From a phage: a DNA stretch of 64,000 bases. Below the pieces are notes generated by a model. That model did no database searches. It saw only the letters and a list, made by a program, of their open reading frames with translations, and had not been told where the DNA came from. The stretch's first letter is position 1. Every line of letters begins with the position of its first letter. The stretch is from sequence record PZ386953.1; one strand, 5' to 3'. This document shows positions 20,013 through 34,470 of this stretch, piece by piece. Position numbers and translations under genes: made by a program.

Positions 20013-20579
20013 TTATTCAAACTGCAATAGTAAGTCCACCACCGCGCTAGGTCTGTCAACAAATTCCCCAGGTCCACATGCCCACAGAGGGTATCCGTCT
20101 ACATACCGCCAAATCCAACCTGCAGTGTGGAGTTCGAGCAGGGCAGTACCGTCCTTACTGTCAACCACTCTTTCCCACAGTGTCGGGCAGCGAAGCTTGA
20201 GGATCGGATCCCCTCCCTTATACCCATCCATGTAGATACCCATTGCAAAGTTCAGCATCATCTTTTTGTGCACTGATCTTTTACTGAGGGTACTCATCAC
20301 TTCCTCTTTGTGAATGTTTGTAAGCTTCTCCTTGGCTACCCGCAGATCGTTGCAACCATTGTTCAGCAGATCTTCCAGACACTTGATCCGAAGGTCGTGA
20401 ATGTCTTTGTCGTGTACCGTTGGCACAGGGTCGTAGCGGTATAGCACTGTTGATACAAGGTTGCTCGGGTGTGGGTCTGACAGCAACCCATAACCCCAAT
20501 ACTCTTCTGTATCTGAAAGGACAAGACACCCAATGTCTCTGTCAAGCTTTCCTGTGTTGTAAGCCACATTGACCGCCAT
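20013..20579 (-). CDS. hypothetical protein
   Basis: 188-aa ORF in co-directional packed block. Confidence 0.4.
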   Translation of the reverse strand: MAVNVAYNTGKLDRDIGCLVLSDTEEYWGYGLLSDPHPSNLVSTVLYRYDPVPTVHDKDIHDLRIKCLEDLLNNGCNDLRVAKEKLTNIHKEEVMSTLSKRSVHKKMMLNFAMGIYMDGYKGGDPILKLRCPTLWERVVDSKDGTALLELHTAGWIWRYVDGYPLWACGPGEFVDRPSAVVDLLLQFE

Positions 20580-22329: not shown

Positions 22330-23811
22330 TTACTTAGCGTACTCGATTAATTCCACAGTTTTCCCAAAGCTCGGGATATAATTTTTATTATACCCCTCAG
22401 TGAGGACCCATAGAGTATCGTACTTTTTCCACTTGTTGTCAACAACCTTTTGTTCAAAGTTATGCTCAAAGTATAGGTCGGTCAGGACGATGACATCTTT
22501 TGCATTAGGTATGTTGGCATCCAGATACTCGAACACGCAAGCAGCTGTTGTGCCCCATGTTGAGTGGACCTCATAGTTGACCATCTCGTCTATGTTGCCG
22601 CGAGTGTATACTTTAACCTCTCCAACCTCAGTTGACCAACAGAACATTGTAACCTTAAACTCTTTATACAGATTGCACAATCCGGTGATTTCATTGAACA
22701 TTTTCTTTAAAGTTCTTTGAGAGATCGAGCCAGAAACGTCTAAAGCCACCACAATATCTATAGTGTTTTCCGGATTACGACCAGGAACAATAACGTGCTG
22801 GTTCTTGTTTATAGCCCCAACTTTTCGCATTGTGCTGGTCAAAGACCCAGATCGGCGACCAGGTTTTCTGTAGGTCAGTTCGGCCTTTCTTTTAGACAAC
22901 ATACGTTGCTTAATGATGTCTATATAGTTGATTACAGGCTTACCTCTGTTCTTGACAAACTCACGCACCGCCTCAGGGCAACGGCCTCCGGACGCTTGCA
23001 TTGCTGCCTCCAGCATATCACCAGAGTCCTGCATGGCCTGATCTTTATCAGATTGGCTGATTACAGGTTGTGGCTGATCATACCCCATAGCCTTTCCAAG
23101 ATTATCACTGGTGCCACCGTTCCCACTCATGTGATCATCGGTTTGTCGCTTATCACTTTGAGAGTTCTCACCTTTACCGTTCTTACTTTTACCGTTATTC
23201 TGATCTCTTTGCTTATCAAGAACTGCATAAACGTTCTCAGCAATCCATCCATGAAACTTCATGTCGCAGTAGCAGCTGGCTAAGAAGCCAAAAGGCTTAC
23301 CTTTCATGAACGTAGTGCTTTTCCCCTTCGGGAAGAAAACACAAGGAGGTTTGCTAAAGTCAACCACAAGGCCTGTGTTGATAACGTGATCACAAGCAAT
23401 ATTGAACAGTTCCGGCTCAAAGCTTTTACCACGGACTAGGTGATCACAGATAATATGCCCCACCTCATGTGACAGAAGGAAGGCCACCTCTTTCACAGAT
23501 TTTGGGGAATAGAAAACTTCAGCCATCTCAAACTGCTCGTCAGTTAGAGAAGCCTTAAGAATAGCCTTGCGTTCATCAGCCAATCCCATAATGAACTCAG
23601 GACTGTAATAGATGCGTTTATGGTCGGTTGCCATGGTGGAGCACCATGTGTGGTTTTCTACGAACTGCAACCCTGACAGTAGTGTGCCATAAAACGGCAA
23701 CTTTTCAAGGAGATACATACGTGCAGCCTGCAACATTCTCAGGGCATCATCTTTCTGCGAGGCAATGATTTCTGAACTTCTGCTATCCATTAAAACTCCA
23801 GGAGGGGCCAT
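22330..23811 (-). CDS. putative zinc metallopeptidase - vWA domain protein
   Basis: HEVGH (HExxH) in N-terminal half; DVSGS (vWA MIDAS DxSxS) in C-terminal half; alternative start at 23790 has a better RBS (first ATG lies inside a hairpin). Confidence 0.6.
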   Translation of the reverse strand: MAPPGVLMDSRSSEIIASQKDDALRMLQAARMYLLEKLPFYGTLLSGLQFVENHTWCSTMATDHKRIYYSPEFIMGLADERKAILKASLTDEQFEMAEVFYSPKSVKEVAFLLSHEVGHIICDHLVRGKSFEPELFNIACDHVINTGLVVDFSKPPCVFFPKGKSTTFMKGKPFGFLASCYCDMKFHGWIAENVYAVLDKQRDQNNGKSKNGKGENSQSDKRQTDDHMSGNGGTSDNLGKAMGYDQPQPVISQSDKDQAMQDSGDMLEAAMQASGGRCPEAVREFVKNRGKPVINYIDIIKQRMLSKRKAELTYRKPGRRSGSLTSTMRKVGAINKNQHVIVPGRNPENTIDIVVALDVSGSISQRTLKKMFNEITGLCNLYKEFKVTMFCWSTEVGEVKVYTRGNIDEMVNYEVHSTWGTTAACVFEYLDANIPNAKDVIVLTDLYFEHNFEQKVVDNKWKKYDTLWVLTEGYNKNYIPSFGKTVELIEYAK

Positions 23812-23823
23812 TGGCCCCTGTCA

Positions 23824-24864
23824 TTATTTAACGTGTTTGAAAATACCTGCCAACTCGGTCATTGTCATGCGGGTGGTCTTCATAAGATCTGTCATAGCTT
23901 TCTCCATAATTGGAGATACTACCATAAAGTTTCCTTTAGTGAAACCTTTATTCCAGTCGGTCACCAACAGGGGTTTAAGTCCAGCTCCAAGACGTTCACC
24001 AGTTAAAGCACAGCATTTGCGAATATACGAACTCTTAAATTGGCTGAACGACAGATCAACTTTCATACCTACATCGTAGAACGTTTGACAATAGAAAGTG
24101 TAAGCTTTGGCAATCTCAACATCATCAGGTAGTGCAGGAACCTCTTCTGTAAGCCCCTCTTCGACCTCCTGAGTCTCTTTTTCCTCTTCATGCACCTGTT
24201 GCGTCATTTCTTCAATCTCTTCTGTGATAGGCTCGTTTACAATGTCGGAAATGTGCTTCTTGGGTGCACGATAAGTAACTTTAGACATCGGTAGCATATC
24301 TTCCTCCTCTTCTTCGTCAAAGAGTGCTAGTTTATCCTCTTCCGTTCCATATTGCAAGATGAAATCTTCAAAAGTATAATCACCTTTCAATTTCTCCATA
24401 CGCTCTTCGCTCAGGTGGAGCATCATCTGCTGGACAATTTTTCGATCAGTTTCGTCTTTAATCAAGACTGCAGTCTTTTTATCTACCAGACAGTCCTTTA
24501 GAGAGTTGCATCTCAATCCCACCACACAACAGTTATCAACCGCATAAGGACCTTCATCATCTATCCGCTCCAGGGATGGGTAGAAAGGATTCCCCAGCCC
24601 GTTTTCATCTGTGTGCATGTCAAAAGGTATAAGGGTATAGTCGCATACTCCATCTCCTAAAAGTTTTTTACCAAATAGGAGGTATTCTTCCCATGACAGG
24701 TCGAACTCTATATCTCGTTTCCGTGCGTTATTCTGTTTGCGTCTATATTTTTTGAGCAAGCGCTCTAACTCTTCTGGTGTATAATATTTTTCAAGATTCA
24801 TGAGTCGTCTCTCGTGCTCTGTAAGTGAAGAAATCGTATCAATTGTCTCAACAGATGTCAACAT
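23824..24864 (-). CDS. acidic protein with two related Cys-containing segments
   Basis: 346 aa; poly-E linker; N- and C-terminal segments both begin LSW/FxxY/F; internal MSKVTYRA encoded by a 29-bp repeat. Confidence 0.4.
   Translation of the reverse strand: MLTSVETIDTISSLTEHERRLMNLEKYYTPEELERLLKKYRRKQNNARKRDIEFDLSWEEYLLFGKKLLGDGVCDYTLIPFDMHTDENGLGNPFYPSLERIDDEGPYAVDNCCVVGLRCNSLKDCLVDKKTAVLIKDETDRKIVQQMMLHLSEERMEKLKGDYTFEDFILQYGTEEDKLALFDEEEEEDMLPMSKVTYRAPKKHISDIVNEPITEEIEEMTQQVHEEEKETQEVEEGLTEEVPALPDDVEIAKAYTFYCQTFYDVGMKVDLSFSQFKSSYIRKCCALTGERLGAGLKPLLVTDWNKGFTKGNFMVVSPIMEKAMTDLMKTTRMTMTELAGIFKHVK
24265..24293 (-). repeat. 29-bp inverted repeat, arm 1
   Basis: Reverse complement of TACCGATGTCTAAAGTTACTTATCGTGCA, inside the 346-aa - strand gene. 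Confidence 0.8.
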
Positions 24865-24874
24865 CAAAAACGTG

Positions 24875-27172: not shown

Positions 27173-27442
27173 ATGTTATACCAGCAATATGAACTTCGTG
27201 CAGAAAAAGAGTTAAATTTTGACAAAGATATTCACAGATATTATTATGGGAAAGTTAGAGGGCAAGCAAGAAAGTGTACTCCAACACTCTTTTATGCCAG
27301 CAGACGACTAGCGCCAGAAGAGGCAACAGCAGAAAGGGTTGCGTACAACTGGAGAGTCACGTATGATATTGACAGATTCGATGTGATATCTGTTTTGGAA
27401 AACTTTGAAAACACTTACACACAAGTAGAGGACTTTTACTAA
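27173..27442 (+). CDS. hypothetical protein
   Basis: 89-aa ORF. Confidence 0.4.
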   Translation: MLYQQYELRAEKELNFDKDIHRYYYGKVRGQARKCTPTLFYASRRLAPEEATAERVAYNWRVTYDIDRFDVISVLENFENTYTQVEDFY

Positions 27443-28626
27443 TGTCAAGAAACGTATTCGAAAGTGGTCAAATCACTGTCCGTGAGTTGCCAGCTATTAT
27501 TCAGTTTGCCCAACGTCATAGCCGATCTGTCCTAATTTTGGGACCAATGGGTGTGGGTAAAAGCCAGGTGATGAAGCAGATCGCTGATAATATGTTCGGT
27601 GAGCGAGATGACAACCTTGTTGACGTGCGACTGTCAGATAAAGATCCTGCCGACTTATCTGGGCTACCTATCCCTGTAGAAGCGGATGGAACTACACGTA
27701 CAGTGTTTGCAATTCCAGAATTTTGGCCTGCGAATCCTGACTGGAGCGGAATTATCTTTCTGGATGAGCTCACTCATGCAGATAACTACCTGCAAAAGGT
27801 TGCAATGCAAATTATGCTTGACCACAAGTGCGGCACCTATGCATTCCCTAAGGGCTCTGTTTTTGTGGCTGCGGGTAACCGTTCTACAGATGGTGCGGTT
27901 CTTTCGGCGCTCGAAGCCCCTCTGGCTAACCGTTTTATCATTGTAGAGGTTACAAGCAATGCAGAGGTGTTTATTGAGGACTACGCATTCCTCAACGGGG
28001 TTCACTCCTCTGTAATTGGGTATCTGAAAAGAGTTCCATCAGCTATTGATAATTATGAGGCTATGGCTGAGATTAATTGTCCATCTTTTGCCACACCACG
28101 ATCTTGGGTTGCTGCATCTGACATCTTGCACGATTTTGACAGCGGTATTATTTCTGACGCTATGGCCCGTGTTCTTCTGCAAGGTGCTATTGGTCACACT
28201 GCAGCGGTAGAGATCTGGACTTACCACACCAAGAAACGTAATTTACCGGAAATCGGTCGGATTATGGCAGGTGGCTGCAAAGAATATGTAGGTCCTAAGC
28301 AGCCAGACATTTTGTGGATTCTTGGATCTGAAGGTTGTATCGCTATTCGCAATATGATGGAAAATGCAAGTATCTCAGACGAAGATCTTGTCAGCTGCGT
28401 GGCAAACTTCCTCGATTTCCTTTGGGAAAACTTCAAGGACGAGAACCGAGATTTTGTATTCTCAGTCTTTATGGCGATGATGAAACCTAATGCCTTAGGA
28501 AATGCCTTGCTTATCGGTAAAGGGCGTGACAAGATTGTTGCTCAGCTGATCAAAGCATACCCAAACCTGATGAAGATTGTAAAAGAGTTTGGTGAAGAGT
28601 TTAGCGCCATTTTGGCTAAAGCTTAA
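27442..28626 (+). CDS. AAA+ ATPase, MoxR-like
   Basis: Walker A GPMGVGKS, Walker B IIFLDELTHA; TAATG overlap with upstream gene. Confidence 0.6.
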   Translation: MSRNVFESGQITVRELPAIIQFAQRHSRSVLILGPMGVGKSQVMKQIADNMFGERDDNLVDVRLSDKDPADLSGLPIPVEADGTTRTVFAIPEFWPANPDWSGIIFLDELTHADNYLQKVAMQIMLDHKCGTYAFPKGSVFVAAGNRSTDGAVLSALEAPLANRFIIVEVTSNAEVFIEDYAFLNGVHSSVIGYLKRVPSAIDNYEAMAEINCPSFATPRSWVAASDILHDFDSGIISDAMARVLLQGAIGHTAAVEIWTYHTKKRNLPEIGRIMAGGCKEYVGPKQPDILWILGSEGCIAIRNMMENASISDEDLVSCVANFLDFLWENFKDENRDFVFSVFMAMMKPNALGNALLIGKGRDKIVAQLIKAYPNLMKIVKEFGEEFSAILAKA

Positions 28627-28636
28627 GGGGGGTTGT

Positions 28637-29017
28637 ATGGCTAAAGTAGGTAAGCGGGGAAACTACCTGGTGGTATTGACCGAGGAGCCGGAGAAGGAGT
28701 ACGAATGCAGCTCCACTTGCGTGATCGATATCCGAGAAAAAGATGTAGATGAAGTCTGGTTTAAAATATTGGACGCTTGCGATAGCAGTGATTATTTCTT
28801 CATTTATGTCAACGATAAGGCTGGATTCTTCCATGACGACGGAGAGTTGCCGTATGAAATCTATGAACTTGTAGAGGCTTGCCATCGTGGAGATGCGGAG
28901 TTGTTTGGCCTACGGCTGAAAAGCGGTAAATTCTTCTATCAAGATGAGTGCATGAATCTTCATAACTTTGTAGAGGGAACTTGCAACGATGGAGAGATTT
29001 TGGCACACTACGATTAA
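28637..29017 (+). CDS. hypothetical protein
   Basis: ATG after AAGGGGGG; tool start 28589 overlaps upstream gene; terminator follows. Confidence 0.4.
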   Translation: MAKVGKRGNYLVVLTEEPEKEYECSSTCVIDIREKDVDEVWFKILDACDSSDYFFIYVNDKAGFFHDDGELPYEIYELVEACHRGDAELFGLRLKSGKFFYQDECMNLHNFVEGTCNDGEILAHYD

Positions 29018-29028
29018 TTTCTAAGACC

Positions 29029-29057
29029 TCCCCCGCTTCGGCGGGGATTTTCTATTT
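29029..29057 (+). terminator. intrinsic terminator
   Basis: CCCCGC-TTCG-GCGGGG (same stem-loop as 2599) then ATTTTCTATTT. Confidence 0.65.
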
Positions 29058-29066
29058 GGAGTCATT

Positions 29067-29567
29067 GTGAAAATTAAGATCTTTGCTATTATTTTGAGCG
29101 CACTTTTATCGCTGCCTGTTGTTGCAGCACCAAAACAAAAAGTATATCATACTTGCAAGCCATCAGATACTAAGGAAAACATTCTGGCATGCAATATCTA
29201 CAGGGAAGCTAGAGGAGATGGCACGATGGGTATGCTGGCATCTGGGTTTGCCACACTAAACAGGAAATCCCACCCTAAATACCCAGACACTATAAGAAAG
29301 ATTGTCTACCAACCTAACCAGTTTTCGTGGACAAACCACGGCAAAACTTTTAAGGTGACAGAAAAAGATTCATGGGATCACGCTAAAAGTCTTGCAAAGA
29401 TGCTTCTAAAGGTCTATAATAACAACCATGTTGCATACATGGCTATGGACATAACAGGTGGAGCAACACACTACCATACAACCAAAGTACGACCGAAATG
29501 GGCAAAAAAGATGCAGAGGACAGCTCAATTCGGGAGCCATATCTACTACAAGGAGCGCAATAAATGA
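29067..29567 (+). CDS. secreted cell-wall hydrolase, SleB-like
   Basis: N-terminal signal peptide (MKIKIFAIILSALLSLPVVAAP); LNRKSHPKYPDTIRKIVYQPNQFSW resembles the SleB/CwlJ hydrolase core. Confidence 0.5.
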   Translation: MKIKIFAIILSALLSLPVVAAPKQKVYHTCKPSDTKENILACNIYREARGDGTMGMLASGFATLNRKSHPKYPDTIRKIVYQPNQFSWTNHGKTFKVTEKDSWDHAKSLAKMLLKVYNNNHVAYMAMDITGGATHYHTTKVRPKWAKKMQRTAQFGSHIYYKERNK

Positions 29568-31546
29568 TTGTAAACAGTAATGAAACTAAAGCAGTGCTGA
29601 CCGGAAATATGGAGGTCACCAGGGGCTCAATTTCTCTGAACAAAGAGACTTTTGGGCTAATCATTAAAGGGATTTACGAAGATAAGGTGCTGGCAAGCTG
29701 CCGTGAACCAATCTTCAATGCTGTGGACTCCCATGTTGAGTCTGGACGGGGTGATGTACCGATCATCATTCACTCTCCTACAGACCTTGAACCATACTTC
29801 TTTGTGCAGGACGTTGGATTGGGCATGTCAGAAGAGATGGTCCGCAACACTTTCATGAATCTCGGGGAGTCAACCAAGCGCAACAGCAACGCTCTGGTAG
29901 GTAATAAAGGTGTTGGTTCAAAGGCTCCGTTCAGTATGGTGGACACTTTCGATGTTATCAGTGTGCACAATGGTGTTGAAAGCACATATCTATTGTTCTT
30001 GGATCAGGGTATCCCAAACGTTACCAAGATCCGTGAGCGGAAGACTGAAGAGCACAACGGGGTAAAAGTTCAGTTCCATGTTAAGAAAGAGCATGTCCTG
30101 AAATATCGCACTGCTATTGCATCGTGCTTACGCTATGCGAAGTTTCCGTTCATCGTCACCGATCCTATGACCAGTAAGATGTTAGAAGGTGACAAGGTTG
30201 AGGCACAGTATCATTACGAGAAGGATGGCTGGAAAATGACCATCCTGAAAGGTTATACCAGTTCTGATGAGAGCCGTGTTGTGATGGGTCACCAACCTTA
30301 CCGCTCCAAGTTCCTGGAGACATTGACCGATTACCCTGCAATCTGCGTGGAAATTCCTATTGGGGATTGCAATATTAACCCTGGGCGTGAATGGACCATA
30401 GAGGGCCATGACGACGGTGGATTCCAGGATCGCCTGGAGGCCTTTGTCAAAGAAGGTATACGTCTTCGCGGGGCAGAAGTTATTGCAGAACTGGAGACGG
30501 CAAAAACCTCCGCAGAAGCACGTGAAATGATGAAGAATAGTGGAGTGTTCGGACACATCTTCGGCAAAAACTTTATGTGGAACCGTTGGGAAGAAACAGG
30601 GCTTGGCGACTTAGGCGATTGTGAAATTTTCGCTGGCGGCTTAAATAAAGGCCGCATAGGCTATGCTCGTTACGGAAAGTCGGAGTTCTTACGAGGTGTA
30701 TACCTTGTATTTAACGACGGAGATGGTAAATATAACCGAAATAAGTGTAACTACTTAAGCGAAATCACCGGACGCAACGTTTTCTATTGCCGGAACACGG
30801 ATCTGGTGAAAGAGTTTAAAGAGGCGGCACACCATCCGTTCTTTGCAGATACTGTCAAATTGTTATCAGAGCTCCCTCGCCGACCTGCGAAGAAAGGTGA
30901 AACAAAAACTCATTACGAGCCAGGTTATTGGGTTAAAAAGCTTGAGAAGGATGGTTACTTCCGTCGTGAACGTATTACTAAGGCAGAGTTCAAGAAGATT
31001 AAGCACTGCATTCCTTATGAGGGTGATATCCAACGTGGAAGTTGTTGGCTGGGACAGCTGAGTAACATCTACCAGCAAAATTATGACCGTGTGCGTGCTG
31101 CACTCCAGATTCCTGAAGGTGAAGATCTGTACTTGGTATCAGAATCTCGTCTGCTTTGGACTGATCCTGATTGCCAGTATGTTACAGAGAAGAATGTGGA
31201 ACACTTGTTGAAAGAGGATGCTTGGAAATTCTTACTGACTCGCGCAGCAAATGAAACTTCATATGACAGCTTGTATAGACAATTAGGGAAAATTATCCCC
31301 ATGCAGGATTTTGGAAATTATCGGCCACATTTCCACAAGTGGGAAGGTAACACCGCGTGGAAGCACAGTGAGCTAAATCATCGTGCCAAAATCTTAATCG
31401 CCAACCGGGTTAAGTGCGGGAAGGCCTATATTGCAAGATTGGAAAAGAAATATCCACTTTTGAAGCATGTGGGCTTGAAATATTGGGACACCCCTGCTAT
31501 GATTGAATACCGTGAGCTGATCGATACAAAGAATAACATCAAATAA
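29564..31546 (+). CDS. GHKL-type ATPase-like protein
   Basis: Bergerat-fold motifs in order: N-box EPIFNAVDS, G1 DVGLGM, G2 GNKGVGSK. Confidence 0.5.
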   Translation: MIVNSNETKAVLTGNMEVTRGSISLNKETFGLIIKGIYEDKVLASCREPIFNAVDSHVESGRGDVPIIIHSPTDLEPYFFVQDVGLGMSEEMVRNTFMNLGESTKRNSNALVGNKGVGSKAPFSMVDTFDVISVHNGVESTYLLFLDQGIPNVTKIRERKTEEHNGVKVQFHVKKEHVLKYRTAIASCLRYAKFPFIVTDPMTSKMLEGDKVEAQYHYEKDGWKMTILKGYTSSDESRVVMGHQPYRSKFLETLTDYPAICVEIPIGDCNINPGREWTIEGHDDGGFQDRLEAFVKEGIRLRGAEVIAELETAKTSAEAREMMKNSGVFGHIFGKNFMWNRWEETGLGDLGDCEIFAGGLNKGRIGYARYGKSEFLRGVYLVFNDGDGKYNRNKCNYLSEITGRNVFYCRNTDLVKEFKEAAHHPFFADTVKLLSELPRRPAKKGETKTHYEPGYWVKKLEKDGYFRRERITKAEFKKIKHCIPYEGDIQRGSCWLGQLSNIYQQNYDRVRAALQIPEGEDLYLVSESRLLWTDPDCQYVTEKNVEHLLKEDAWKFLLTRAANETSYDSLYRQLGKIIPMQDFGNYRPHFHKWEGNTAWKHSELNHRAKILIANRVKCGKAYIARLEKKYPLLKHVGLKYWDTPAMIEYRELIDTKNNIK

Positions 31547-31556
31547 GGAGACCAAG

Positions 31557-32762
31557 ATGATTTTCATCTACGAACATTTCAAAACCCGTAAAGAAGCACG
31601 AGACCGCCGTGCAGAACTTGAGAAGAAGGGTTTCACATGTGCCGTTGAGAAAGGCGACACAACCTGGACACTGGCAGTTGGTGCCCCAGAGTTGTTCGAT
31701 CCTGACCGTGACAGCGTCTGCTACACCCGTGAGGATTTTGAAACCCGCGAAGAGGCCCGTTTATTTCGATACGGTCTGGAAGATAACGGTAAGTACGCTA
31801 TGATCTTAGATTTAGGCGAAGGTTCCGTTAAACGTTGGGGCGTGGTATACCCACTGTGTGTTGTTCACGGTGTGGGGTTCACTGGGGTGGCAATCAAGTC
31901 AGAAGAACCTTTAGTAGAAGTCAAAGATCCGGTGCTGGAGGTGGTGAGCAGTGTGTCTCAGCAACAGACTCGAAACATCGAGCCTTTGGTGGTTATTTGT
32001 GGGGAACTCCTCCAGATCACCTGCAACGAAGGCATTTTTGAAATTCGCCGCAGCGAAAGTGAGGAAGTTTACCAGAAAGTCTTCGACCATATCTCTGTTC
32101 AGGAATATGACGAGGCAATTGGTGAAATCCTTGTCTGGTTGGAACGCAAGAATGAGTTCACTACACTTGCAGACAACCTGATTATGAAAGATGGTAAGCT
32201 CTATTACTACGGTGTAGAGATGCAATCTACCATTGCAAAGAAAATTGAGGAAGATTATATAGATGGAACACTGGACGACCGATATGTTAAATTCCTTGTC
32301 CGTCTGCTACGCAACCCGTCTGCAAAATCTGTGAACATGCTCTACGATTTCATGCAGGCTAATGACATCCAGGTTGCAGAAGATGGTCGAATCATTTGCT
32401 ATAAGGGGGTTCAGTTTAACGGAAGCAAGTGGGTGGATTGGCACAGCGGTAAAGTTCCACAATACCAGGGTGCTTTTGTATCCATGCCTCGTAACTTTGT
32501 AGAAGATGATCCGGAAGCTGCGTGTTCTTATGGCCTGCACTGCGCCAGCAAAGAGTATGCAGCGGGCTATGGCACCGTAATGATGGTTATGGTTGACCCT
32601 GCGGATGTGGTTAGTGTGCCATACCAACACAACAGTGCTAAGTGCCGTGCATGCCGCTACGAAATCGTAGCAGCACCGGAATCACGCAAAGATGGCGATC
32701 CGATTGAATACGTGGTTGACCGTGATGGTAACACTATCGACATTCTTTACGAGGAGGCGTAA
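31557..32762 (+). CDS. hypothetical protein
   Basis: 401-aa ORF, AAGGAGA RBS, tightly coupled to flanking ATPase and helicase genes. Confidence 0.45.
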   Translation: MIFIYEHFKTRKEARDRRAELEKKGFTCAVEKGDTTWTLAVGAPELFDPDRDSVCYTREDFETREEARLFRYGLEDNGKYAMILDLGEGSVKRWGVVYPLCVVHGVGFTGVAIKSEEPLVEVKDPVLEVVSSVSQQQTRNIEPLVVICGELLQITCNEGIFEIRRSESEEVYQKVFDHISVQEYDEAIGEILVWLERKNEFTTLADNLIMKDGKLYYYGVEMQSTIAKKIEEDYIDGTLDDRYVKFLVRLLRNPSAKSVNMLYDFMQANDIQVAEDGRIICYKGVQFNGSKWVDWHSGKVPQYQGAFVSMPRNFVEDDPEAACSYGLHCASKEYAAGYGTVMMVMVDPADVVSVPYQHNSAKCRACRYEIVAAPESRKDGDPIEYVVDRDGNTIDILYEEA

Positions 32763-34132
32763 TGGAAAAAGGGCAGTATGATGTAGGCACAGATGCTGCC
32801 CTCGTTGCAATCATGAGCGGTGAGAATGTCTTCGTTTCAGGACCCGCAGGTTGTGGGAAGACGTACCTCATCAACATGATCCAGTCAATGTATGGAGACT
32901 CTTGCATAACGGTTGCCCCGACAGGGGTAGCCGCTTTAAACGTTAATGGAGCAACAGCACACCGAACCTTCGATCTTGCAGCAGGTGTGAGCATGGAGTC
33001 AGACTGGACCGCAATAAGGGCAAAAACAGCAAAGCCTTTGAAGAGCAAGGCATTTACCATCCTAATTATCGATGAAATCTCTATGATCCGTGCTGATAAG
33101 TTTATAGAGATGGATAGGAAACTCCGCTTCCTTCGAAAAAATGACAAACCTTTCGGAGGCATACAGGTCATATTGTTTGGCGATTTTTACCAGGCACCTC
33201 CTGTTGTCTCTTCTATGGAGAAGGAAGCCTACTTCAACTTCTACCATACGGACTTGTGTTGCTATACCGAATCTTGGAAAGAGCTTGACCTCCACAACAT
33301 AGCCCTAATAGATCAGTTCCGACAGGAGTCTATTCGATTTGCTACAATGCTCAACTGTGTTCGTGAGGGTCGTCGTATAAAAGAGGTTGTAGCAGAACTT
33401 AATGCTCGCTGTTACAAAGGAGGTGTACCAACAGACGCTCTCACAATTTGCGCCACCAACAAACAAGCAGAGGAAGTGAACAGAAGGTTCTATGATGCCA
33501 TCAACGCCCCAGAGAAGGTATACACTGGTGAAATGAAGGGTAAGTTTCCCTCTACCTTGCCAGTTGAGCAGGAGATGAAGTTGAAAATTGGCATGAAAGT
33601 TATGATAACCGCCAACGATGTTGACCCGACGCACAAAGTACCTTATTATGTTAACGGAACACGTGCCACAATTGTTAAATTTAAGAACAAGGCGGTGGTG
33701 GTGGAGCTTGAAGATGGAACACAGGTTGACATAGAACAAAGGTTGTGGGAGAATAACGAGTATAAGCCATCTCAAAGATACAACATTGCAGAAAGGAAGA
33801 TGGAGAAGTTTATAGAGAGGGTAGTGATTGGATCATACAAGCAACTCCCTCTGAAATCTGGGTACGCCGTAACATCTCATAAAAGTCAAGGACTTACGCT
33901 AGATTGTTACAACCTGGACCTTGGAAAGAACGGAGCTTTCTCTCCTGGGATGACGTATGTTGCTTTGAGTCGAGTTAAGACAATACAAGGAATAAACTTG
34001 TTGCGTCCACTAAGAGAAGTTGACATTATTGTTGACCCGCGAGTAGTAGAGTTTTACAATACAACCTTTCCTGACTTAGACAAAATTGTCAGGAAAGATT
34101 TTGAAACCAGAGCAGAAGAGGGGGACGTATGA
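32762..34132 (+). CDS. PIF1/RecD-like superfamily 1 helicase
   Basis: Walker A GPAGCGKTY; Walker B IIIDEISMI; C-terminal SH3-like core. Confidence 0.6.
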   Translation: MEKGQYDVGTDAALVAIMSGENVFVSGPAGCGKTYLINMIQSMYGDSCITVAPTGVAALNVNGATAHRTFDLAAGVSMESDWTAIRAKTAKPLKSKAFTILIIDEISMIRADKFIEMDRKLRFLRKNDKPFGGIQVILFGDFYQAPPVVSSMEKEAYFNFYHTDLCCYTESWKELDLHNIALIDQFRQESIRFATMLNCVREGRRIKEVVAELNARCYKGGVPTDALTICATNKQAEEVNRRFYDAINAPEKVYTGEMKGKFPSTLPVEQEMKLKIGMKVMITANDVDPTHKVPYYVNGTRATIVKFKNKAVVVELEDGTQVDIEQRLWENNEYKPSQRYNIAERKMEKFIERVVIGSYKQLPLKSGYAVTSHKSQGLTLDCYNLDLGKNGAFSPGMTYVALSRVKTIQGINLLRPLREVDIIVDPRVVEFYNTTFPDLDKIVRKDFETRAEEGDV

Positions 34133-34470
34133 GTTTGTGGAGAAATATAGTTAACTACGTGTGTGGCAATCCAACTCCTGAAGAGAAGGATGTTGTGATT
34201 CACGATTTTACTAAAAGATCTCGTGAAAAAGATCTACTGCTGACAAAGGTGACTGATAAAGATCCTGCAGTAGGGGACTGGGCAGGTTTTGCGTTTACAT
34301 CGGACAAATACACCTTTAACAAAGGTGACTATCTTGTTGTGGATTTTAACGAAGACATCGAGGGTGCTGAACCTTACTATCAAACCCTTATTGTTGCAGG
34401 GTGTGTTAATCTCTCTGCAGGTATGCACAGTTTGATTCTTTTTGAGCTTGACTCTGAAGACCTTGAGTAG
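34129..34470 (+). CDS. hypothetical protein
   Basis: 113 aa; ATGA overlap. Confidence 0.4.
   Translation: MSLWRNIVNYVCGNPTPEEKDVVIHDFTKRSREKDLLLTKVTDKDPAVGDWAGFAFTSDKYTFNKGDYLVVDFNEDIEGAEPYYQTLIVAGCVNLSAGMHSLILFELDSEDLE

Follow-up and report, generated by a model that had tools for sequence, protein, structure and literature searches.

We analyzed a phage DNA of 64,000 nucleotides (sequence record PZ386953.1), referred to as a whole as the window, with regard to two adjacent genes that encode proteins of 660 and 401 amino acids. An earlier note, made from the letters of the window alone, had described the first protein as a GHKL-type ATPase and the second as an unassigned, tightly coupled partner. 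Both open reading frames (ORFs) were recovered in the ORF map at the places given there, on the plus strand (Table 1). Each of them has hundreds of homologues, so that the two are genuine genes rather than ORFs that arose by chance. The partner could be assigned, and with it the pair. We conclude with high confidence that the genes form the rII locus of an rV5-like (Vequintavirus) coliphage, with rIIA followed by rIIB.

The assignment was derived from profile and pairwise searches. The 660-aa protein matched PHROG 612 (RIIA) with E=1.8e-124, residues 1-658 covering positions 1-724 of the 725 in the profile, and T4 rIIA matched the same profile with E=9e-250. In BLASTP it was 28% identical to T4 rIIA over residues 1-198 (E=3e-21). 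The 401-aa protein, left unassigned before, matched PHROG 609 (RIIB) over residues 132-375 (E=2e-60) and was 36% identical to T4 rIIB over 204 aa (E=2e-37). All of its database relatives carry the Pfam family PF26926 (Phage_T4_rIIB), an assignment taken from precomputed annotations of a 97%-identical cluster representative and of all relatives. Since both protein identities and the gene order agree with T4, the pair was placed as rII. On a metagenomic viral contig of 146 kb, a PF26926 gene likewise follows a distant homologue of rIIA, which is 30% identical over 37% of the query.

The pair is already known. Megablast with positions 29000-34200 as query matched 121 phage records, of which Escherichia phage EdH4 was the best with 99.9% DNA identity; phage pangalan followed the query with 99.8%. 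EdH4 and pangalan are both classified as Vequintavirus murica, an rV5-like myovirus of ~136 kb. The rIIA protein of the window is identical to that of EdH4 (QBO61345) in 660 of 660 residues, and rIIB differs from its EdH4 counterpart (QBO61344) only by V30I. Both proteins are named in GenBank records and were tested functionally in a phage with near-identical proteins. The labels vary between the records. In pangalan they read 'RIIA protector from prophage-induced early lysis' and 'rIIB protector', the records of the BASEL phages label both proteins 'membrane integrity protector', and in the EdH4 record both genes are a 'hypothetical protein', with rIIA and rIIB named in the notes only. By tblastn, rIIA homologues were detected in 2,647 of 50,697 phage records, associated among others with Escherichia, Klebsiella, Vibrio, Streptomyces, Caulobacter and N4-like Roseovarius phages. 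The impression that such GHKL ATPases are uncommon in phages is therefore wrong.

Table 1. Features of the rII locus and its immediate neighbors, in window coordinates.
Feature	Position	Strand	Basis or remark
Terminator-like GC hairpin CCCCGCTTCGGCGGGG, then T-rich tail	29031-29046	+	Consensus scan; also putative terminator in the EdH4 record
SleB/CwlJ-type cell-wall hydrolase gene, 166 aa	29067-29567	+	Pfam Hydrolase_2, E=2e-19; cell wall hydrolase in related phages
rIIA gene, 660 aa, ATG start	29564-31546	+	ORF map, homology
rIIA Bergerat motif I (N-box), E48 PIFN52 AVD55	29705-29728	+	Aligns to HtpG RELISNASDA
rIIA Bergerat motif II (G1 box), D83 VG85 LG87	29810-29824	+	Aligns to HtpG DNGVGM
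rIIA Bergerat motif III (G2 box), G113 NKG116 VG118	29900-29917	+	Aligns to HtpG GQFGVG
rIIA second-domain loop, G267 DCNINPG R275 E276	30362-30391	+	Counterpart of the Hsp90 middle-domain catalytic loop
rIIB gene, 401 aa, ATG start	31557-32762	+	PHROG 609, BLASTP to T4 rIIB, PF26926 on relatives
Two small beta-alpha-beta-beta repeats of rIIB, SPOR-like (residues about 3-42, 53-103)	31557-31865	+	AlphaFold2 model; absent in T4 rIIB
Conserved rIIB core domain (residues about 170-375)	32064-32681	+	Common to T4 rIIB; pLDDT mostly 80-94
rIIB motif C323-S-x-G-L-H328	32523-32540	+	Invariant in 26 close relatives
Dda/PIF1-like SF1 helicase gene	32762-34132	+	Pfam PIF1, E=1.1e-32; PHROG 325 Dda-like helicase, E=6e-112

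The GHKL call on the 660-aa protein is right. Each of the three Bergerat motifs was found a single time, and they follow one another in order, as had been noted (E48-x3-N52-x2-D55, D83-x-G85-x-G87 and G113-x2-G116-x-G118). When 26 homologues with identities as low as 19% were aligned, just 20 columns were invariant. These include all nine Bergerat residues, S103-T104-K105 in the lid region, G166 and R275-E276. G166 would correspond to the glycine of motif IV, as it aligns to HtpG G-T-E-I; the Thr position of this motif is taken by Val167 in rIIA. Pfam HATPase_c_3 was detected on residues 50-147 with 35 bits, above its gathering cut-off, which is 25. An AlphaFold2 model built from the 26-homologue alignment had a mean predicted local distance difference test (pLDDT) score of 83.9, and a Foldseek search of the PDB with this model returned TRAP1 and Hsp90 first (E=2e-15). 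Profile and structure searches thus agree on the GHKL fold.

The layout of rIIA goes beyond the ATP-binding domain. An N-terminal GHKL domain is joined to a transducer-like second domain (about residues 17-340 together), and a C-terminal half to which no fold could be assigned follows. This combination of a Bergerat domain with a transducer-like second domain places rIIA in the GHL/MORC branch. Structure alone leaves the nearest GHL family undecided; by sequence profile it is Hsp90/HtpG. When the rIIA family profile was searched against the PDB, E. coli HtpG was found with E=1.7e-10, and the next 59 listed matches were also Hsp90 relatives. The alignment with HtpG extends from the G1 box to the catalytic loop, where HtpG DLPLNVSRE corresponds to rIIA GDCNINPGRE; T4 rIIA has GSLDIAPSRE at this position. 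In Hsp90, the Arg of the middle-domain catalytic loop contacts the ATP gamma-phosphate. The Hsp90 family (HtpG, TRAP1, GRP94) therefore shares with rIIA a GHKL N-domain that is followed by a second domain with an Arg in a D-x-x-x-N-x-x-R-E loop, and it is the best PDB match of rIIA by profile and by structure. Nevertheless, rIIA is not a member of the Hsp90 family, because the NCBIfam HSP90 model scored 17.7 bits against a cut-off of 455 and the C-terminal half is without a relative. For this half no relative was detected, and the structural alignments stop short of it. NCBIfam models gave just sub-threshold matches on rIIA, to sacsin, HSP90 and restriction-enzyme GHKL proteins. No transmembrane helix was found in rIIA, the best 19-residue Kyte-Doolittle mean being 0.83.

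The AlphaFold2 model of rIIB (pLDDT 72.1) consists of N-terminal repeats, a disordered linker and a core. The linker comprises ~40 residues (100-141) with pLDDT below 30. Conservation is concentrated in the core. The C323-S-x-G-x-H328 form of the Cys/His motif was also invariant in a set of seven sequences that included T4 rIIB and one distant metagenomic rIIB. The other residues invariant in this wider alignment (N253-P-S255, M310, R312, D350-x-V-S-x-P355, K362 and R364) all lie in the core as well. Together with the nearby invariant Asp, Arg and Lys residues, C-S-x-G-L-H looks, as judged from conservation, like a candidate active or metal-binding site. The N-terminal module, on the other hand, is not conserved; T4 rIIB has a helix-turn-helix (HTH)-like segment there that matches PHROG 867, 'DNA binding domain'. 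Sequence and profile searches of the PDB with rIIB gave nothing below E=0.1, no Pfam nuclease family matched, NCBIfam returned nothing, and a DNA-binding fold was not detectable in the core. The TOPRIM or nuclease fold that the earlier note had suggested looking for in the partner was accordingly absent from the Pfam and PDB searches. Residues 95-113 have a borderline hydropathy of 1.69. They were not called as a transmembrane segment, since they are modelled as a beta-strand running into the disordered linker. In the databases, a 498-aa metagenomic protein combines TPR repeats with a 95%-identical C-terminal part of rIIB. It is encoded on a single 3.3-kb contig and may be an assembly chimera and not a real fusion.

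Compared with T4, the two genes are in the same order and are separated by a spacer of nearly the same size, 11 nt in T4 (rIIA ends at 12 and rIIB starts at 168903 of the circular map) versus 10 nt here. T4 rIIA has the same GHKL motifs and the same second-domain S/G-R-E loop, the C-terminal core of T4 rIIB is the part with 36% identity, and both proteins fall into the same PHROG families as those of the window. The differences concern length and surroundings. T4 rIIA has 725 aa against 660 aa here, with C-terminal halves that are hardly alignable, and T4 rIIB has 312 aa against 401 aa, with the HTH-like segment in place of the SPOR-like repeats and the ~40-residue linker. In T4 the neighbors of rII are the topoisomerase genes 60/39 and denB, whereas here they are the cell-wall hydrolase and the Dda-like helicase. 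The type II topoisomerases themselves (GyrB, ParE, T4/T6 gp39) differ from rIIA and its partner, which have no TOPRIM domain, no 5Y-CAP partner and no match to them at the sequence level. A type II topoisomerase ATPase subunit was ruled out, since neither a TOPRIM domain nor a DNA-cleavage partner is present.

For the function of the pair, published experiments can be used. Adler et al. (Nat Microbiol 2025, PMC11879866) describe the CRISPRi-ART knock-down of RIIA or RIIB in the phages T4, MM02, EdH4, SUSP1 and N4. Knock-down is reported to be without effect on Rex-free E. coli and to reduce the efficiency of plating when the host expresses lambda RexAB, and the authors ascribe suppression of Rex-mediated immunity to divergent rII systems (<40% identity). 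The EdH4 genes tested there against lambda RexAB lie in an identical gene context and show essentially no difference from those of the window. The BASEL paper and the HIDEN-SEQ preprint also name rIIA/B as the T4 counter to RexAB. Furthermore, expression of T6 RIIB alone triggers a bacterial gasdermin system, and rIIB-null escapers turn Rex-sensitive (Wein et al., PMC10312443). With proteins that are identical or near-identical to those of this phage, the biological role has thus been established, and by analogy it should hold here. PADLOC defense models gave nothing meaningful on the pair, which is therefore not a defense-system homologue.

Based on these data, rIIA and rIIB most probably form an accessory counter-defense pair that is dispensable on ordinary hosts. 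It would be needed for efficient growth on cells with the abortive-infection system RexAB of a lambda prophage, which would otherwise depolarize the membrane and abort the infection. That rIIA binds and hydrolyzes ATP we infer from the invariance of Glu48 as general base, of Asn52 as Mg-binding residue, of the two glycine boxes and of Arg275 in the second domain. ATP-driven dimerization of the N-terminal domains could then serve as a clamp or remodelling switch, as in Hsp90, MutL, GyrB and MORC, with rIIB as a stoichiometric partner that would bind through its conserved C-terminal core. The two proteins would keep the RexA/RexB trigger or channel from firing, so that the membrane would not be depolarized. 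This specific mechanism, a clamp that stops RexA/RexB from firing, is put forward tentatively and is on balance doubtful. Somewhat less likely still is the combined proposal that rIIA is an ATP-hydrolyzing clamp of Hsp90/HtpG descent or catalytic design and that the rIIB core is a fold not solved before, with an active or metal site at C-S-x-G-L-H. If this were true, rII would work as a machine resembling a chaperone or an enzyme, with a Rex component or a membrane client as the target of its remodelling, and E48, N52 and R275 of rIIA together with C323 and H328 of rIIB would be the point-mutant targets for the rII-Rex mechanism.

Several points have to be set against the identification and the proposed mechanism. 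BLASTP aligns just the N-terminal 198 residues of rIIA to T4 rIIA, and the C-terminal halves are barely alignable, with 25% identity in a forced global alignment. Full-length membership of rIIA in the family rests on the PHROG profile, because the pairwise alignment covers the N-terminal third only. Likewise, there is no relationship between the first 170 residues of the present rIIB and the N-terminus of T4 rIIB. Given the 10-nt gap between the genes, the knock-down of rIIA by CRISPRi-ART could be polar on rIIB. ATP hydrolysis, dimerization and a physical complex of rIIA with rIIB are steps that we infer. Neither protein has a clear transmembrane helix, and a membrane role of the pair would therefore be peripheral at most. 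The identification as rII was contradicted by no result.

Other explanations were weighed against a joint action of rIIA and rIIB on Rex. The pair might be a DNA-manipulating replication enzyme, a topoisomerase-, MutL- or MORC-like ATPase with a TOPRIM or nuclease partner, as was implied by the earlier note. The position of the genes would fit, directly upstream of the Dda/PIF1-like helicase, methyltransferases, a primase-helicase and DNA polymerase. Mutations in T4 rII show genetic interactions with mutants of DNA ligase, and a DNA-protein complex is considered to be the signal for RexA; both were counted in favor of a DNA enzyme. However, rIIB has no match in the PDB by sequence or profile and none to a Pfam nuclease, so that no cleavage domain is present. 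Knock-down of EdH4 rIIA/rIIB is reported to leave infection of Rex-free cells unimpaired (Adler et al., PMC11879866). An essential role in replication is excluded because the EdH4 knock-down is harmless without Rex, and we regard a DNA enzyme as very improbable. A role of rIIB as transcription factor that tunes phage expression, as proposed for jumbo-phage orthologues, with rIIA acting separately, deserves equally little weight. In the work of Iyer et al. (2021, PMC7824862), rIIB orthologues are found among the specific transcription factors, and the N-terminus of T4 rIIB, with its match to the PHROG 'DNA binding domain', reads as a helix-turn-helix. In the rIIB of the window, however, the HTH-like N-terminus is absent and two beta-alpha-beta-beta repeats stand in its place, and the part conserved throughout the family is the C-terminal core, which is without a detectable DNA-binding fold. 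Moreover, rIIA and rIIB are adjacent even in distant relatives and have the same Rex phenotype. This persistent adjacency and the shared phenotype favor a joint function.

A little less remote, though still improbable, is that rIIA is a phage chaperone of the Hsp90 type which mainly controls the timing of lysis or the integrity of the membrane, with a holin or another envelope protein as a possible object of remodelling, and that Rex resistance is a side effect. The nearest profile relatives HtpG and Hsp90, the conserved catalytic loop and the top structural matches TRAP1 and Hsp90 are all in line with such a chaperone, as is the translational link of the rIIA gene to a cell-wall hydrolase gene. 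The PHROG and GenBank labels 'lysis inhibitor' and 'membrane integrity protector' point in the same direction, but they go back to the rapid-lysis phenotype of T4 r mutants and are inherited names, not tests. The HSP90 family score is far under its cut-off, and knock-down in the absence of Rex is without a reported phenotype (Adler et al.). Thus the counter-defense function of rIIA and rIIB against RexAB is the preferred reading.

As a discovery the locus is of limited weight, since it represents, in rV5-like form, a gene pair that ranks among the oldest known from phages. What value is left concerns the mechanism by which rII counters Rex. For mutagenesis the locus offers a complete two-domain GHL ATPase module in rIIA with Hsp90/HtpG as nearest relatives in sequence, an rIIB core without a solved relative and with an invariant Cys/His motif, and an rIIB N-terminus that can be regarded as a swappable module. 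Descriptions of an Hsp90-type catalytic loop in rIIA or of the C-S-x-G-L-H motif in rIIB were not found in the literature searched, which was covered in part and gives no proof of novelty. The loop and the motif are small testable additions and not new systems.

The gene borders at the locus are narrow. The TGA stop codon of the hydrolase gene (29565-29567) overlaps the ATG of rIIA (29564) as ATGA. The gap of 10 nt between the rIIA stop (31546) and the rIIB start (31557) contains a GGAG Shine-Dalgarno sequence, and the rIIB stop and the helicase start overlap as TAATG at 32762. The upstream overlap and the downstream gap were read directly in the sequence as described before. Of the translational coupling claimed with them, the geometry held. 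Coupling itself is only suggested by this geometry, and each gene has a separate Shine-Dalgarno sequence. The PIF1-like helicase expected next was found as well. It is a neighbor outside the rII pair and is followed downstream by methyltransferases, the primase-helicase and DNA polymerase. The hairpin in front of the hydrolase gene probably closes the upstream unit, and the transcription unit would then consist of hydrolase, rIIA, rIIB and helicase, beginning after the hairpin. A promoter-like site at 29065-29092 is a consensus match only. The promoter scan gave 17 sites compared with 16.8 in shuffled sequence, which is no excess, and no promoter is therefore asserted.

Some further observations were made around the locus. 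The cell-wall hydrolase gene lies in the early/replication region and is ATGA-joined to rIIA, a gene labelled for 'membrane integrity'. Two genes upstream of the rII block, a MoxR-like AAA+ ATPase gene is located at 27442-28626 (PHROG 1297, E=4e-110). Scans for tRNA genes and Rfam families were empty across the whole window. Between 18000 and 24900 the GC skew is negative and the long ORFs are on the minus strand (20013-20579, 22330-23811 and 23824-24867). This block separates the structural genes from the early/replication block, with a divergent transcription boundary near 24.9 kb. Finally, 16 records titled 'Campylobacter phage' (e.g. MG065635 and MG065659; host Campylobacter jejuni) are ~97% identical to the rII region. 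These records are unannotated, and their similarity to a coliphage suggests host mislabelling or contamination.

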